Virus record (IMG/VR): IMGVR_UViG_3300010162_000393
Span: 72,865-136,864 of that record
DNA length: 64,000 nucleotides
Origin: a virus
Taxonomy: Duplodnaviria > Caudoviricetes
Strand: one strand, 5' to 3'
The notes under the pieces are model-generated. The model saw only the letters and a list, made by a program, of their open reading frames with translations, made no database searches and was not told where the DNA came from. Of this stretch, positions 14,025 through 20,370 are shown piece after piece. The position numbers and the translations under genes are program-made. The stretch's first letter is position 1. Every line of letters starts with the position of its first letter.

Positions 14025-14543
14025 ATGCAAGTTGGAGGTAAATATCCTATAACAAGAAATTCATTGCATTTTGATGAAAGTATGTTCAATATGTTCTCTG
14101 AATGGGCGCAAGATTATACTGAAACTTGGATTAATCAAAAGGTTGTTTTATATCAGGTAGATTATATAAGAACCAATGCCGATGATTTGTATGGAGAAAC
14201 ACATACTGACGAAGTTAGATATAAAACTCCTATTGAACTACCATGTAGATATAAGATAGATAAAAGTACGAATGAAGCGTACACAGCAACTAAAAAAGCA
14301 CGTTACAAAAAGATAGGAAATATAAGTCTTTCAGTATTTGAAAAAACATTTAAAGAATATAATTGTGATATTAAATACGGAGATTTAATAGGTGTTGCCG
14401 CCGATGAAAAAACACTGATATTCTTCGAGATAGTGGATGACGGAAAATCAAATTTCAGTAATATGGAAACAATGTTTGGTTATAAGAGATTATATCGAAA
14501 CATTAAGGGGTGTACTATTGATGAATCTGTCTTCAACGGTTGA
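14025..14543 (+). CDS. Putative head-closure/neck protein (T4 gp14-like)
   Basis: VVLYQVD...DDLYGE...YKTPIEL...DIKYGDLI pattern; cotranscribed with a late gene. Confidence 0.55.
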   Translation: MQVGGKYPITRNSLHFDESMFNMFSEWAQDYTETWINQKVVLYQVDYIRTNADDLYGETHTDEVRYKTPIELPCRYKIDKSTNEAYTATKKARYKKIGNISLSVFEKTFKEYNCDIKYGDLIGVAADEKTLIFFEIVDDGKSNFSNMETMFGYKRLYRNIKGCTIDESVFNG

Positions 14544-15873
14544 ATTCCAGAGGCATAGTTATAGGTTTTTGCATAAGTGTTCCACTGAGATACACTAATG
14601 TTCCGTTTACAAATGTGTGTGTAACCGTAGATCTAAATCTATAATTTACAAATGACGACCATTTACATTTATGAATAATTGTATTAGGTAATACATACCA
14701 TCCATACTCCAAGTCTACTAATATTAAATCTGCCCAATAACCTGGTCGAATAAAACCTCTGTCCTTAATACTAAATAATCTTGCTGGACCGTGACACATT
14801 TTTTCAACTATTTGTTCAATTGTTATTTTATCGTCATGATAAAATTCTAACATTGCTTGTAATGAGTGTTGAATTGAAGGAATTCCTGACGGTGCTTTGA
14901 AGTATGTGTTACTTTTTTCCTCCAAAGTATGTGGTGCATGATCTGTTGATATTGTGCTAATAGTATTATCTAATAACCCCTCAAATAGTGATAACCTATC
15001 CTCTTTTGTTTTAAAAGATGGGTTGCATTTGATCCATGTTCCAAAATTATCATAATTTGAATTATCAAATATTAAATAGTTTACACACACTTCACCTGTA
15101 ACAAAATCTTTATTAGCACGTATTAAATCCAATTCTTTTTTTGTGGACACATGTAATATATGTAATTTCGTGTTATATTTTTTCGCTAATTCAACTGCTA
15201 ATGAACTTGATTTATAACACGCTTCTTCACTACGAATATCCGAATGGTATTTAATTGGCATGTTTTCACCATATTTTTCACGAAACAATTCTGTGTTTTT
15301 AACAATAATATCCTCATCTTCACAATGTACTGCTATAATAGATGGTACTTGTGAAAATATCTTCTCAATGGTAGAAATATCTTCTACCAACATATTTCCT
15401 GTTGAAGACCCCATGAATAATTTAACACCACATACTTTTGAAAAATCTGTTTTTAAAAGTTCATCAATATTATCATTTGTTGCTCCGATATAGAACGAAT
15501 AATTAGCAAATGAATTTTCTGCTGCTAACGCAAATTTTTCTGAAAGTGCTTCTTGTGTAACAGTTTGTGGTATTGTGTTCGGCATTTCCATATATGATGT
15601 TACGCCACCAGCAACTGCTGCATGTGTTTCACTAGCAATGTCCCCCTTTCTGGTTAGACCTGGTTCACGAAAATGAACATGTGTATCAATAACACCTGGA
15701 AGTAAATATTTTCCTTCGGCATTAATTATTTGACACTCTTGAAGTATGTGATAACCACTTTCACAAACCCCTACAATTTTTCCATCTTCTATAAGGACAT
15801 CGCCTTCTTGTATTGTTCCTTCGTTGACAACCTTTGCATTTCGTATCAACGTCTGTTTTTTTGTATTTGACAT
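14533..15873 (-). CDS. pyrC: Dihydroorotase (amidohydrolase family)
   Basis: PGVIDTHVHFREPG, EMPNT, GVKLFMGSSTG, HCED, HILHVS, KCNP, STDHAPH. Confidence 0.92.
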   Translation of the reverse strand: MSNTKKQTLIRNAKVVNEGTIQEGDVLIEDGKIVGVCESGYHILQECQIINAEGKYLLPGVIDTHVHFREPGLTRKGDIASETHAAVAGGVTSYMEMPNTIPQTVTQEALSEKFALAAENSFANYSFYIGATNDNIDELLKTDFSKVCGVKLFMGSSTGNMLVEDISTIEKIFSQVPSIIAVHCEDEDIIVKNTELFREKYGENMPIKYHSDIRSEEACYKSSSLAVELAKKYNTKLHILHVSTKKELDLIRANKDFVTGEVCVNYLIFDNSNYDNFGTWIKCNPSFKTKEDRLSLFEGLLDNTISTISTDHAPHTLEEKSNTYFKAPSGIPSIQHSLQAMLEFYHDDKITIEQIVEKMCHGPARLFSIKDRGFIRPGYWADLILVDLEYGWYVLPNTIIHKCKWSSFVNYRFRSTVTHTFVNGTLVYLSGTLMQKPITMPLEFNR

Positions 15874-15875
15874 AT

Positions 15876-16928
15876 TTAATTATATAATTGATTTCTCATT
15901 TCAACTAAAACTCTTTCAATAAATTCAACATCCGGTGTTTCTTGTAATGTACATTTTTCGTATAGGATATCTATTTCTTCTATCATTGTTTTTGCACGAC
16001 TTACCAAATCATCATATTCAGCATCACCACGACGTATTGATAATAATTCTTCACGATTTGGAACACGAACAATTAGATTTCCATTAGATAATATTTCTTT
16101 GGATTGTTGTAACAACCTGATAGTATGACACATATTCTTAGCATCGTATCGTTTTCCATGTGACATAGTATTATTAAATCTTACTTCACTTCGTTTATCA
16201 ACCCACTCCCAATATTCTTTATATTCTTTACAATATGCTGAATATCCGTCTTTATTAAAATATAATCTATTATCTGGTGTTATCCATTTAGGTATAGAAC
16301 TAAGAGCAACTTCATTAGCATCTGGACATGACATTATTCCTCTGAATTTGTCTTTATAATAATACAAATCGTAAATGTCCTTCATATTATTTATGGAAGA
16401 TAATCCACAATCTTCTTGTTTGTATCCGTAATTTGACAACCATGTGTTAAGTGATACAGATCCGCCATTATCATTAAGAACATAACAAAAATCAAGTATA
16501 TTTTTTCTTTCCTTATCCATTGGGTTTAGGATTTTTTTGTTCAACCCTCTCGCCTTTTTAATTTGAGATATGGCGTATCCGGCAAACGTGTTTTTACACA
16601 ACTTTGATAAAAACATATCAACCGTAAGATTATCCATAATATTATTTCGATACAATATACAATCTTCTGGTGTTGCTAACAATTCCAACATATTAGGATT
16701 GTTTTTTAATAATAGTTCAACGAATCTCCCAATCTCATAATATACTTTGTCGTTTTTTTCGTCTTCTATTTGTTGGGTATAAGTCAAACCATATAACTTA
16801 TCTTTTGGTAAATAAAAAACACCTCGAATATCTGTATCCGATTCAGGGGTATCTATTCCATATGCTTTACTACCGCTGATACATTCAAACAGTAAAAGGT
16901 TATTTTTTTTTATGTATTCTATCGACAT
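15876..16928 (-). CDS. Predicted nucleotidyltransferase (YcgL/RlaP-like)
   Basis: SGSKAYGIDTPESDTDIRGVF, NNPNMLELL, YDAKNMCHTIRLL. Confidence 0.85.
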   Translation of the reverse strand: MSIEYIKKNNLLLFECISGSKAYGIDTPESDTDIRGVFYLPKDKLYGLTYTQQIEDEKNDKVYYEIGRFVELLLKNNPNMLELLATPEDCILYRNNIMDNLTVDMFLSKLCKNTFAGYAISQIKKARGLNKKILNPMDKERKNILDFCYVLNDNGGSVSLNTWLSNYGYKQEDCGLSSINNMKDIYDLYYYKDKFRGIMSCPDANEVALSSIPKWITPDNRLYFNKDGYSAYCKEYKEYWEWVDKRSEVRFNNTMSHGKRYDAKNMCHTIRLLQQSKEILSNGNLIVRVPNREELLSIRRGDAEYDDLVSRAKTMIEEIDILYEKCTLQETPDVEFIERVLVEMRNQLYN

Positions 16929-16975
16929 TTTTTGTTTAATATTTGAAATATACTATATTCGATTATATTTTTGAT

Positions 16976-17320
16976 ATGAGTGGTTTTGTTTATCTAATAC
17001 TTGAATGGGATAAAATTGAAGAAAACCTTGTCCCAAGTAAAATAGGTGTTACCAGAGGGTGTATTGAAAAACGTATCAAAAAACTCCAAACCGGAAATAC
17101 CTCTAATCTACATCTCTTCACACATTTCAAATCTGAACATCCGTTTAGGTTAGAAAAAATGTTACACAACCATTACCAAAAATATAAAACAAATGGTGAA
17201 TGGTTTAACCTACCAAATGAAACTGTATTAGGATTCAAAACCATTTGTGAAGAAAAAGAAGAACTTATTAAATTTCTACTAAAAGAAAACCATTTTTTCG
17301 GAAAAAAAACAGGTTTCTAA
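16976..17320 (+). CDS. GIY-YIG (T5orf172-like) nuclease
   Basis: GFVYLI...KIGVT...RIKKLQTGN...LEKMLH...GEWF; ATG at 16976 preferred over TTG at 16943. Confidence 0.8.
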   Translation: MSGFVYLILEWDKIEENLVPSKIGVTRGCIEKRIKKLQTGNTSNLHLFTHFKSEHPFRLEKMLHNHYQKYKTNGEWFNLPNETVLGFKTICEEKEELIKFLLKENHFFGKKTGF

Positions 17321-17323
17321 TTT

Positions 17324-17348
17324 ATGATTTTCCGCAAACATACCCCTA
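17324..17348. repeat. 25-bp inverted repeat, left arm
   Basis: ATGATTTTCCGCAAACATACCCCTA; 23/25 identical to the reverse complement of 18566-18590. Confidence 0.9.
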
Positions 17349-18539
17349 AAAGTTATTTGTTTTTAGAATTGACGCTTCAACGGGTTCGTAACCTCTTCCC
17401 TCCACGTCCACTACCCCCCACATCGGGGGTGATATACCTATATTCCTTATGTTTATGGAAGCGTTAAAATCCCTGTCATGTAAAATGCTACACGAAGGAC
17501 ATATCCACTCCCTTACACGTAAATCCTTTACCTCAACATTCTTATAACCACACCTGTTACACAACTGCGAGGAAGCAACAAACCTACCAATCTTGATAAG
17601 ATTCTTACCTTGCCACTCACTTTTGTATCCCAACTGCCGTACAAACTCACTCCAACTTACCGACTGAATACTTCGCGCAAGTTTGTGGTTTTTGACCATT
17701 CCGCTTACGTTCAAATCCTCAATACAAATGGTGTCGTAATTATCCAACAAATACGTGGACAAATTATGCAACCAATGGTTTCGTTGAAATGTGATTTTTT
17801 GGTGAATTTTTGCAACCTTCAACCTTTGCTTTTCTCTACGATGACTTCCTTTTTGTCTTCGACACAACACCTTTTGGGCGTGTGCTAAACGTAAATGAGT
17901 CTTTTCAAGAAATTTTGGGTTTCCAAAACATTCACCATTTGAGGTAACAGCAAATTCCTTAATTCCCAAGTCAATACCTATGGTTTTATTAGAATCTTCC
18001 ACTTTGGTTTTCGGTGGAATTGGTTCTAGCGTATCGCATAGGATACTTACGAAATAATAACCTGCCTGTGTTTTTGATACTGTCATAGACTTGATTTTTC
18101 CTTTTGGGAGTCTTGACAATATCACTACTATATTTCCACATTTTCCTAATCTTACGGTGGATTTCTCCACGTTCAGGTTGAAACAATCTGGAAATGTACA
18201 AGTTTGTTTGTTACATTTTTTCTTATAATTTGGGTATCCTGCTGGTTTCCCTTGTTTTACATTTCTGAAAAAATTGTTGTATGCTGAATCGACGTTGTTC
18301 AGAGTAACGTTCAGGGTATGTGCGGTGGTGTCTTTCAACCATTCATGTTCTAACGTTAATTCGTTTCGCAACATTTTTCCCAAATCGAAAGAAGATAATG
18401 ACTTCTTTTCAGTTTCCCACAACGTTTTCTTTTTGTTCACTGCCCAATTATAGATAAACCGAGAACAACCAAAATGTTGTGCAAGGGCAACTTTTTGGTT
18501 ATCGGTTGGGTATATTCTATATTTGAACGCCTTTAACAT
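17346..18539 (-). CDS. tnpB: TnpB RNA-guided endonuclease (IS200/IS605 OrfB)
   Basis: KAFKYRIYP N-terminus, RuvC-I GIDLG, RuvC-II CIEDL, zinc finger CNRC/CPSC, RuvC-III DRDFNAS. Confidence 0.95.
   Translation of the reverse strand: MLKAFKYRIYPTDNQKVALAQHFGCSRFIYNWAVNKKKTLWETEKKSLSSFDLGKMLRNELTLEHEWLKDTTAHTLNVTLNNVDSAYNNFFRNVKQGKPAGYPNYKKKCNKQTCTFPDCFNLNVEKSTVRLGKCGNIVVILSRLPKGKIKSMTVSKTQAGYYFVSILCDTLEPIPPKTKVEDSNKTIGIDLGIKEFAVTSNGECFGNPKFLEKTHLRLAHAQKVLCRRQKGSHRREKQRLKVAKIHQKITFQRNHWLHNLSTYLLDNYDTICIEDLNVSGMVKNHKLARSIQSVSWSEFVRQLGYKSEWQGKNLIKIGRFVASSQLCNRCGYKNVEVKDLRVREWICPSCSILHDRDFNASINIRNIGISPPMWGVVDVEGRGYEPVEASILKTNNF
17369..17520 (-). ncRNA. Putative omegaRNA/right end overlapping the tnpB 3' end (5' boundary approximate)
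   Basis: Minus strand GGACGTGGAGGG...CCCGTTGAAGCGTCAA resembles tnpB right ends; predicted guide follows (17368-17349). Confidence 0.5.
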
Positions 18540-18543
18540 ATTT

Positions 18544-18551
18544 CAAATTTA
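18544..18551 (-). promoter_or_regulatory. Bacteroidota-type -7 element TAAATTTG
   Basis: Matches TAnnTTTG just upstream of the tnpB ATG. Confidence 0.4.
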
Positions 18552-18565
18552 CACTTTTTATACGA

Positions 18566-18590
18566 TAGGGGTATTATTGCGGAAAATCAT
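18566..18590. repeat. 25-bp inverted repeat, right arm
   Basis: TAGGGGTATTATTGCGGAAAATCAT. Confidence 0.9.
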
Positions 18591-18593
18591 TTT

Positions 18594-19667
18594 CTAATTT
18601 CTGTAAAACAAAACATCATCCGCCTCAATTGGATATGGAAAATCCATTTCCTTCATCATATTCATAATGGTATTAGGATGTACTTGTCCTTCCCTTCTAT
18701 CAATATGGTTTTGTTTTGTGGTTTCATGATATTCAATTGTTATGTGAGGATTATATGGGGATACCATTTGAATGAATTCGTCACGGTATTTTTTTCTTAT
18801 AAAAAGATTATCTGAAACAAAGTTTTGTCTTCGTTCACATAATTCTATTATCTGTTTATGTTCAACATGTGTCACCTTGTCTTCCTGAATTTTGTTCCCC
18901 TTTAATTTTCCACCATGTTCAACCATACCTAATTCCGCTCTAATAATGTCGCGTGATATTAGTTCAAACCCAAATTGTTTATATCGTCTTTCATATGCCG
19001 TTGTTTTTCCACCACCAGCAACTCCGCATAAAATTGTAATATAAAAACCAGATTCTTCTTTTGTTTCAATTTTTGGTTCGCAATTCCAAACACCTAATTG
19101 TTTAGCATAATCTTTTAATGTTTCGCAATGTTGAATTTCATTTTCTTTATCAATGGATATTGCACCCATTACATCAAACAGATTAAGATAATATAACAAA
19201 CGACAATCTGAATTGCGTGATATGTTGGTTACATTTTTTTCAATATCTTCCATTTTGAAACGCAAATATTTTGGTTTCATGTGGTGTTTTATCAACGAAC
19301 ATATTTTCTCTCTCAAAGGTAGTGGTTCATCCCACAACATAAATCGTGTCAATCGCTCTCCTTCAATAGCATGATATGCTGCTGACCAGTTACCATCTTC
19401 TTTTAGTTTTGCAACTTTTCCTTTACCAATATCATGAAATAATGAGGCGGAAACCAAAACCAATTTTTCAAAATCTGAAAATTCTTTTGGATTTTGTTTC
19501 AAATAATCTTGACACGCTTTTACCACCATTTTGGTATGTACCATTGTACTACCCTCCTGATGCCATTCACTATGATATCCACCTTCATTGAGACGTTGAA
19601 ATTCTGGTATTTCTTCTACCAAGTTCCAATTAACCTTTGTATTACCAATTATTAATCTATCTAACAT
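18594..19667 (-). CDS. HD-domain phosphohydrolase fused to P-loop (AAA_33-like) kinase; RNA end-healing type
   Basis: WHQEG..VHT, LFHDIGK, H...HHM; C-terminal GVAGGGKTT, ISRDIIR. Confidence 0.85.
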   Translation of the reverse strand: MLDRLIIGNTKVNWNLVEEIPEFQRLNEGGYHSEWHQEGSTMVHTKMVVKACQDYLKQNPKEFSDFEKLVLVSASLFHDIGKGKVAKLKEDGNWSAAYHAIEGERLTRFMLWDEPLPLREKICSLIKHHMKPKYLRFKMEDIEKNVTNISRNSDCRLLYYLNLFDVMGAISIDKENEIQHCETLKDYAKQLGVWNCEPKIETKEESGFYITILCGVAGGGKTTAYERRYKQFGFELISRDIIRAELGMVEHGGKLKGNKIQEDKVTHVEHKQIIELCERRQNFVSDNLFIRKKYRDEFIQMVSPYNPHITIEYHETTKQNHIDRREGQVHPNTIMNMMKEMDFPYPIEADDVLFYRN

Positions 19668-19804
19668 TTTTTCAATTTTTTAAAACAAAACGTTATAATT
19701 ATCAAAAACGAAATAACAACAATAGCAACAGCACACAATTCTACCAAATATGACCAAGACGCTTGCGATTGCCACCATTTTTCATCAAACATTAAATTCC
19801 ACAT
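19661..19804 (-). CDS. Small single-pass membrane protein (47 aa)
   Basis: Below cutoff. MWNLMFDEKWWQSQASWSYLVELCAVAIVVISFLIIITFCFKKLKKC; fills the intergenic gap. Confidence 0.55.
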   Translation of the reverse strand: MWNLMFDEKWWQSQASWSYLVELCAVAIVVISFLIIITFCFKKLKKC

Positions 19805-19845
19805 ACTTTTTTATTAAATTTTTTACAAAACAATAAAAAAGCAAA

Positions 19846-20370
19846 CTAATTTTCTGATCGCACTTCTGGACCACCTTGACAAACGTAAATGAACTTACTA
19901 TCATCATTGACAACATCCAAAAACTCATCTATCATTCTTTCGTTTGTTTCATCAAACGGTTTAGTGGAATAACTTCCAAACATTTCATTGAAGTCGAATT
20001 TGTTGGATTCTTTTGTTTTAGAAGTAAAAATATATTTATCTCCCATTACAACACCGTCGAATGGGATTTTTGATATAATGTAGTTGATTGCTTTATCTAC
20101 ATTTCCAACGTTTTTTTCAACACCTTCTATTTCATTTGTGAAATTATTCGCGTATAATAACAATAAACACGATTTTTCTGACGTTGTGTACGCTCTCCAT
20201 TGTTTCAATTCACCAATGATAGAATTTACCCTGATGTGTTGTTCATAGAAAATACTCGGATGTAATATGTTATCACAAGATAATATACATCCCTCAAATT
20301 TCTTTTTTATTTTTATTCTGTGTATAAAACTACTACTCTGTTCGGTAGAGGTTATTTTCTTTTTTTTCAT
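19846..20370 (-). CDS. Hypothetical protein
   Basis: 174-aa ORF. Confidence 0.6.
   Translation of the reverse strand: MKKKKITSTEQSSSFIHRIKIKKKFEGCILSCDNILHPSIFYEQHIRVNSIIGELKQWRAYTTSEKSCLLLLYANNFTNEIEGVEKNVGNVDKAINYIISKIPFDGVVMGDKYIFTSKTKESNKFDFNEMFGSYSTKPFDETNERMIDEFLDVVNDDSKFIYVCQGGPEVRSEN

Follow-up and report, generated by a model that had tools for sequence, protein, structure and literature searches.

A tnpB gene and its predicted omegaRNA between IS1595-type terminal inverted repeats in a phage genome

The window analysed here, a 64,000-nucleotide stretch of a 136,864-bp IMG/VR virus record (G000; IMGVR_UViG_3300010162_000393) that is 38% complete by CheckV, contains a 1,267-bp element at positions 17324-18590, in which a tnpB gene and its predicted omegaRNA are enclosed by 25-nt terminal inverted repeats (TIRs, hereafter arms). 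This first cassette is termed E1, a second one in the same record E2, and a third, on an unclassified contig, L258. The arm on the omegaRNA side of E1 (ATGATTTTCCGCAAACATACCCCTA) occupies 17324-17348 and that on the 5' side of tnpB (TAGGGGTATTATTGCGGAAAATCAT) occupies 18566-18590. A repeat search returned the two as the best inverted pair, with 92% complementarity (23/25), and the arm consensus ATGATTTTCCGCAANNATACCCCT was found only at these two places in the window at three or fewer mismatches, with 0 matches in 100 shuffles, in line with the 23/25 identity given in the original prediction, which had been read from the sequence alone. On their outer sides, the arms are abutted by a perfect 10-bp direct repeat, TTTCTAATTT (17314-17323 and 18591-18600), which scored 8/8 in an exact-register test and extends to 10/10. 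The cassette lies between two convergent genes annotated with Pfam, one with a T5orf172/MUG113 domain (16943-17320, plus strand) and one with HD and AAA_33 domains (18594-19667, minus strand). The left copy of the repeat holds the TAA stop codon of the former and the right copy the stop codon of the latter (CTA on the plus strand). Both neighbours are intact because the duplication supplies both stop codons, as expected for a target-site duplication (TSD).

The tnpB gene of E1 (17346-18539, minus strand) encodes a 397-aa protein that is ISDra2-like by Pfam and by a structure-database match, and its frame stops inside the left arm, at 17346-17348. HTH_OrfB_IS605, OrfB_IS605 and Cas12f1-like_TNB domains were detected (Pfam, E 1e-19 to 6e-28), and the HTH/REC, RuvC and zinc-ribbon (TNB) domain set of TnpB is complete. 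Residues 3-369 align with ISDra2 TnpB (8bf8, E 4e-74), and residues 370-397 form a run-on tail across the omegaRNA region. When aligned with the top match, a designed TnpB-like nuclease, the three RuvC acidic residues (D, E and D) of the E1 protein lie in GIDLGI, CIEDLN and HDRDFNA, compared with GVDLGI, AVEDLN and HDRDENA; the DLG, EDLN and HDRD motifs agree, and the gene is intact in this respect, as had been claimed. No other long open reading frame (ORF) is present inside E1, since all further ORFs of at least 40 aa (40-92 aa) overlap tnpB, which accords with the early remark that the element holds no transposase, and no Y1 transposase was seen inside or beside E1 and E2. Only 26 nt separate the right arm from the tnpB start codon, compared with a left end of 40-150 nt in relatives, so the normal left end is indeed missing. 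With TIRs and a duplication present and this left end absent, E1 does not fit the description of an IS200/IS605 element. A putative Bacteroidota-type -7 promoter box, TAAATTTG (18544-18551, minus strand), ends 4 nt before the tnpB ATG. The same layout, a TAnnTTTG box 4 nt before tnpB, occurs in three distant phage tnpB loci (L259, L264 and L265), which suggests that leaderless or near-leaderless expression may be a common tnpB arrangement.

A look for the same inverted repeat elsewhere in the genome, one of the checks first proposed for this locus, revealed a second arm pair around another tnpB gene. The phage record holds exactly two tnpB genes and exactly four arms, and both genes lie inside the two arm pairs. 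E2 (G000:C1:13979-15308; L008 1980-3309) is located 58.9 kb before the window start and 76 kb from E1, with a 305-aa gene on one side and an N6/N4 DNA methylase gene on the other. It encloses a gene for a 412-aa TnpB (P0002; Pfam) without DNA-level similarity to the tnpB of E1, and its flanks, TTAGAAATAA and TTAGAAATAT, form a 9/10 duplication, TTAGAAATA[A/T]. The orientation of tnpB relative to the arms is the same in E1 and E2, and its frame runs up to the arm's inner edge. E2 was seen at one site and in one orientation in contigs of four samples or runs. In the third cassette, found on a 1.8-kb JGI contig (L258), the gene for a TnpB (P0122) that is 79% identical to P0002 in the local match and 77.5% identical over the full length is bounded by arms ATGATAATCCGCAATAGCACCCCT and ATGATTATCCGCAAAGATACCCCT, and the flanks are unrelated to those of E2. 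In L258, just 4 nt lie between the arm and the tnpB ATG, too few to hold an IS605 left end. Comparison of P0002 with P0122 gave a dN/dS of 0.16 at a dS of ~0.9, indicating that the association of arms, tnpB and scaffold is old and has been kept under selection.

Another trace of the E1 type is present in a related phage contig (L009 6937-7045; IMGVR_UViG_3300010167_000015, G001), where one arm, an 18-nt variable stretch and ~80 nt of E1-type omegaRNA region occur without tnpB; from its sequence this remnant looks like a decayed copy of an E1-type cassette. It directly follows an SPFH gene, and the G001 record also holds a solo arm and a degenerate mini hairpin made up of an arm, 22 nt and an arm (L201 and L203). 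In a flanking-repeat scan, no arms were found around the canonical relatives of the E1 protein (TnpB-1; 44-51% identity, L010-L017) or of the E2 protein (TnpB-2; 40-64%, L207-L252 and L259-L266), and the few AT-rich internal repeats in those relatives are parts of ordinary left and right ends. The relatives of TnpB-2 include a clade in ~100-kb human-gut phages. All phage-type arm pairs found carry tnpB. An outward TAnnTTTG box is present in 4/4 omegaRNA-side arms and in 0/3 arms on the 5' side of tnpB; in E1 it is TATGTTTG (17342-17335, minus strand), the -7 promoter match that had been pointed out in the left arm.

The predicted omegaRNA scaffold of E1 (17369-17510, minus strand) overlaps the 3' end of tnpB; it was delimited by homology with relatives, and its 5' limit is approximate. 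The sequence GAAGCGTCAA ends at 17369 and is followed by 20 nt (17368-17349; TTCTAAAAACAAATAACTTT on the minus strand) and then by the arm. We call this stretch between scaffold end and arm the spacer; it stands in the position of a guide. The terminal stem of E1, GUUGA-AGCG-UCAAU, ends at 17369/17368, and an equivalent GUGGA...UUCAC in relatives L010-L012 is followed by variable DNA. This equivalence indicates a canonical scaffold end at 17369, some 20 nt inside the inverted repeat, exactly where it had first been placed. About 44 nt of the E1 scaffold are identical in L009, and the TnpB-2 scaffold is conserved through ..AACTAATAAAT in five loci. An Rfam scan of window positions 16000-20000 returned no family, and the z-scores of the predicted folds were insignificant (-1.4 and -1.25, the former for the E1 region). 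The spacer measures 20 nt in E1, 18 in L009, 22 in E2 and 31 in L258, and the sequences are unrelated; between E1 and L009 it varies while scaffold and arm are conserved. By these comparisons, the spacer appears to occupy the guide position in two unrelated TnpB lineages without being conserved. It may be a frozen guide, the relic of an IS605-type insertion into the loop of a MITE (short for 'miniature inverted-repeat transposable element') of very small size (mini-MITE), or, in a Fanzor1-like read-through RNA, a linker.

In the last of these possibilities, spacer, repeat and duplication would be absorbed into the scaffold and the guide would be phage DNA beyond the duplication, so that TnpB could cut empty sites and thereby restore the cassette. 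Such an architecture has been described where Fanzor1 sits in a TIR/TSD transposon, among others for a non-autonomous ascovirus element with two copies (PMC10711439), and the predicted fold of E1 shows base pairing between the spacer and the start of the arm (UUCUAAAA...UUUUAGGG). However, the scaffold end is still homologous to that of canonical relatives, the spacer varies in length and its hairpin is not conserved, and the folds gave the insignificant z-scores mentioned above. We therefore regard a Fanzor1-like RNA as doubtful here.

The search of the E1 spacer against other phages, also proposed at the outset, did yield five exact matches (L253-L257, IMG/VR), but all of them lie in one homologous gene and amount to about the chance level by a rough estimate from base composition. 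The matched gene has no Pfam match and stands beside a dNMP kinase gene in an unrelated AT-rich phage group; the five probably represent one independent hit that arose by chance. In the phage record itself, nothing matches the E1 spacer. When the spacers were compared with that record, a single 17/20 match was obtained (rough p ~0.1), involving a 20-mer initially regarded as the guide of E2, most of which was afterwards assigned to the scaffold. We also considered the cut of TnpB itself as the maker of the duplication and rejected it, as the reconstructed empty site matches the spacer at only 9/20 positions. These results bear on the idea of a domesticated phage weapon, in which the arms would be inert relics and TnpB with a fixed guide would cut a host or rival-phage sequence. 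An intact TnpB under purifying selection, the recurrence of E2 at one site across contigs of four samples or runs and the internal guide position would suit such a role. Yet the spacer is not conserved between relatives, its sole exact external match is the chance-level gene just described, nothing in the phage's own record matches it, and arms and duplications are almost perfect, as after a recent insertion. A weapon of this kind is thus very improbable.

To identify the arms, exact scans of metagenomes and species genomes were made with the outer 18 specified arm bases. They gave 151 matches, many of them coding or chance matches picked out by the search itself, and only those with full arm similarity were used. 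A reading of the arms as plain Bacteroidota promoters was dropped, many of the exact 18-mer matches being coding or chance. The genome of Prevotella sp. P5-108 (G002) contains 164 arms, compared with one for a reversed control, and the 17324-17348 arm of E1 is 23/24 identical to a MITE end in this genome (L135). Many of the G002 arms are inward pairs that bound ~200-bp elements, some of 78-86 bp, with GC-rich internal hairpins. The tnpB-less arm-bounded relatives in Prevotella (80-340 bp) fit the description of a MITE, whereas E1, with 1,267 bp and a 397-aa ORF, does not. The arm motif is lineage-specific, with 123 matches in G002 vs 0-2 in 60 other genomes of the family. Neither TnpB nor a Y1 transposase (Y1_Tnp) was found in G002, so these arms multiply without tnpB; an origin of the Prevotella repeats from a Y1 transposase or RAYT was rejected on the same absence of Y1_Tnp. 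The Prevotella MITE had no match in plasmid and phage collections.

The same ends were found around transposases of the IS1595 family. In G050 (L267, C30), one of those 60 family genomes, an inward arm pair 2.38 kb apart encloses two passenger ORFs and a 311-aa protein with Zn_ribbon_IS1595 and DDE_Tnp_IS1595 domains (E 1.5e-24); these arms are 20/24 identical to the phage arms. G002 itself holds seven pieces of the G050-type transposase family, mostly at contig ends. One of its transposases (C78) starts ~143 nt inside an arm, and two copies (C40, L277; C63, L278) have differing passenger ORFs before the far arm; the similarity between loci begins exactly at ATGATT. The passengers in L277, L278 and L267 are a DUF3293 protein pair and unannotated ORFs. 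Within the order, an IS1595 transposase of this family is present in 17/251 genomes. A complete element, a 1,012-bp insertion sequence (IS) in G119 with ends ATGATTATC... and a transposase that is 59% identical, is flanked by TTAATAAAAT and TTAATAAAAA, which form a 9/10 duplication whose register is that of E2. A more distant multicopy IS in G088, with ends TATGACTATCGTCGAAATTACC, made clean 8-bp duplications in 4/4 copies checked, and the shared motif ATGAYTATC..C.AA...TACC is also present in it. Because the same ends surround IS1595 transposases in G050, G002 and G119, the arms can be identified as terminal inverted repeats of a Bacteroidales lineage of the IS1595 (DDE) family. The early view that the repeats are foreign to IS200/IS605 and IS607 elements holds, and a source can now be named for them. 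On present comparisons this lineage appears as complete ISs, ISs with passenger genes, MITEs, and tnpB-cargo cassettes in the phage and in the unclassified contig L258. With its passengers, it would qualify as a 'transporter IS' lineage prone to gaining cargo. The IS1595 family usually makes 8-bp duplications (PMC8101967), and the duplication size of this lineage, 9-10 bp, is at the long end of the family. The shared termini point to a Bacteroidales host for the phage, possibly a relative of Prevotella.

In two rumen metagenome contigs (L052 2459-2619 and L094 71-231), a 113-nt AT-rich stretch with TATCTTTG lies between two arms that belong to neighbouring elements and point towards each other; it adjoins a possibly UpxY-like ORF of 420 aa, in which a KOW motif but no Pfam match was found. 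Such a setting, and the fact that inverted repeats of this length can act as inversion sites, would be in keeping with an invertible cassette whose segment is flipped between the repeats by a site-specific recombinase, which had been one of the initial suggestions for E1. It found no further support. The flanking direct repeats point to insertion, and the arms belong to transposon ends; the neighbouring genes examined included no recognisable recombinase; tnpB has a putative internal promoter, and a flip would alter nothing obvious; and all contigs show one orientation. We consider inversion scarcely credible.

Taken together, we think it probable that E1 is a non-autonomous IS1595-type mobile insertion cassette that carries tnpB and omegaRNA as cargo and is moved in trans. 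None of the three initial suggestions gives the best account of it, although a fixed guide may still apply. On this view, E1 inserted between the convergent pair of phage genes with a duplication of 9-10 bp of target, and an IS1595-type DDE transposase, most likely from a Bacteroidales host, would bind the repeats and move the cassette. TnpB would not be needed for movement, because the Prevotella genome has 164 such ends and no tnpB. We infer that the tnpB/omegaRNA module entered an IS1595-type element once per TnpB lineage and then travelled as cargo, the entry route plausibly being an ordinary IS200/IS605-type insertion into a small MITE. TnpB would be expressed from its own -7 box just upstream of the ATG. 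Given the canonical scaffold end at 17369, we propose that the omegaRNA is loaded with the 20 nt between scaffold and repeat, and the guide would then be frozen in the cassette and not renewed at each insertion. Movement of the cassette as one unit, which we infer from sequence, is favoured by the near-perfect duplications, by the presence of tnpB in all phage-type arm pairs, by the lack of left-end room in L258, by the passenger habit of the lineage and by the absence of empty phage-type hairpins. The lack of the arms in canonical relatives of both TnpBs speaks for the same reading, as does the phage record, in which no IS1595 transposase was found.

The main rival is a nested insertion in situ, in which mini-MITEs (arm, 20-40-nt loop, arm) entered the phage and made the duplications, and IS200/IS605-type tnpB elements later landed in their loops with TnpA acting in trans; the spacer would be the native right flank and an ordinary guide. 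The spacer does lie exactly at the place of an IS605 flank or guide, measures 18-31 nt and varies where scaffold and arms are conserved. Moreover, E2 retains 43 nt before the ATG, about the left-end length of canonical relatives, and mini arm pairs exist both in phage G001 (L203) and in Prevotella (78-86 bp). Against this, the gap between arm and ATG is 4 nt in L258 and 26 nt in E1 compared with the 40-150 nt of a left end in relatives, and landing at the same arm/loop junction would have been required of two unrelated TnpB lineages. Every known phage-type arm pair carries tnpB, no empty phage-type hairpin was found in IMG/VR or in the phage record, and no Y1 transposase accompanies the cassettes. 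We judge nested insertion unlikely for the cassettes as they stand, and it may well describe their origin. To that extent the initial suggestion of an insertion into a pre-existing hairpin survives, as nested insertion into a mini-MITE, but its other part does not, since the arms are duplication-flanked IS1595 termini and not a terminator hairpin. Relatives in which the arms make up a plain hairpin and the 20 nt are native flank, the outcome that had been named as speaking for an ordinary insertion, were not found in IMG/VR.

Several points weigh against a cassette moved as a unit by an IS1595 transposase. The phage record is incomplete, as stated above, and the empty site in related phages, named among the checks first proposed, was not recovered for either cassette: the HD/AAA_33 neighbour of E1 has no relative in IMG/VR or G001, G001 lacks the 305-aa gene that borders E2, and relatives of this gene (72-80%, L285-L288) have different downstream genes and offer no clean empty site. 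Relatives differ in the spacer, as would also be expected from separate IS605-type insertions. For the phage-type arm variant (..ATACCCCT), the collections scanned yielded no cognate transposase, and a close-relative scan detected no IS1595 transposase in IMG/VR. No duplication is present at 14 tnpB-less Prevotella MITE copies, at the G050 element or at the L258 cassette, and the 9-10 bp of E1 and E2 differ from the 8 bp usual in the family (PMC8101967) and seen in G088 (4/4 copies). As to the MITEs of G002 (for example L135 3529-3721, L175 and L198), the 14 copies without a duplication stand beside the tnpB cassettes in the phage and the G119 IS, which have one; a similar contrast has been described between Fanzor-bearing and plain non-autonomous Helitrons (PMC3627910).

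The IS1595-type cassette could be taken a step further: TnpB and its omegaRNA may have been captured at least twice independently by a transposon of the IS1595/Merlin type, which spreads them as cargo with a heritable guide, TnpB cutting a fixed target. We offer this only tentatively. The target could, just as tentatively, be tnpB-less copies of the vehicle, the host or rival phages, and homing of an IS would no longer be served.

Around E1, window positions 14533-19667 encode an amidohydrolase, RlaP (RNA-repair pathway Pol-beta family), the T5orf172/MUG113 protein and the HD + AAA_33 kinase-like protein, and together these genes may form a module of the RNA-repair type.

Mobile insertion cassettes (MICs) and transporter ISs are terms of ISfinder/ISsaga (PMC3129680), and E1 would be classed there, by its sequence features, as a mobile insertion cassette. 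Like MICs and IS1595 elements (PMC3129680; PMC8101967), it has IS-type TIRs around non-transposase cargo, a target duplication and no internal transposase, and its related full copies encode an IS1595 transposase (Zn-ribbon and DDE), some with passenger genes, as in MICs and transporter ISs. Unlike MICs, E1 carries as cargo the nuclease/guide-RNA module of another transposon superfamily and resides in a phage; it also departs from the IS1595 norm in the 9-10-bp duplication, and its Prevotella MITE relatives have none. With the tnpB-only elements of IS200/IS605 (IS1341 group) and with ISDra2, E1 shares the protein family, the catalytic motifs and the lack of tnpA, and its predicted omegaRNA likewise overlaps the 3' end of the gene. 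Prokaryotic tnpB-only elements have been described as without TIRs and TSDs (PMC3627910), and in the IS1341 group the guide is the right-end flank, whereas E1 has TIRs, a TSD, almost no left end and an internal guide position. vMITEs (PMC11602168) likewise place host-type MITE termini in a phage genome, but are non-coding, while E1 and E2 carry a 1.2-kb gene.

The closest parallels are eukaryotic. Fanzor1 and Fanzor2* occur in TIR/TSD transposons, an example being the non-autonomous Fanzor1 element that Spodoptera frugiperda ascovirus 1a carries in two copies (PMC10711439; PMC3627910). In both cases, a TnpB-family nuclease lies in a TIR/TSD transposon of the cut-and-paste type, the element is non-autonomous, a large virus genome holds two copies of it, and one type of vehicle appears to have made independent captures. 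Unlike Fanzor, the phage system is prokaryotic, with ISDra2-like TnpB proteins, and its vehicle is IS1595; Merlin, to which IS1595 is related, has not been reported as a Fanzor carrier. By homology, the phage cassettes also keep a canonical scaffold end, and the spacer separates it from the TIR; in Fanzor1 RNAs, by contrast, TIR and TSD have become part of the scaffold. Full-text literature searches found no paper linking TnpB with IS1595 elements.

To our knowledge, prokaryotic TnpB has been described only with the transposases of IS200/IS605 (Y1) and IS607 (serine), in elements without inverted repeats or target duplications. Its accepted role, the cutting of the empty donor site, relies on a guide that equals the flanking DNA. 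IS1595 cassettes and TnpB are themselves known kinds; what is new is an IS1595 cassette with tnpB as cargo, that is, TnpB in a new vehicle. Intact TnpBs of two lineages, maintained by selection, are enclosed by DDE-transposon ends, and the guide position is shut inside the element as well, which raises the question of what use a TnpB with a non-renewable guide is to the transposon or the phage. If the cassette moves by IS1595 transposition, the range of vehicles of prokaryotic TnpB would be wider than thought, and the capture by TIR transposons, so far eukaryotic (Fanzor), would gain a bacterial or phage precedent. If the module has indeed been captured repeatedly with a heritable guide, these cassettes would be a counterpart and possibly a forerunner of the Fanzor captures, and a step from a guide that equals the flank to a stored guide.

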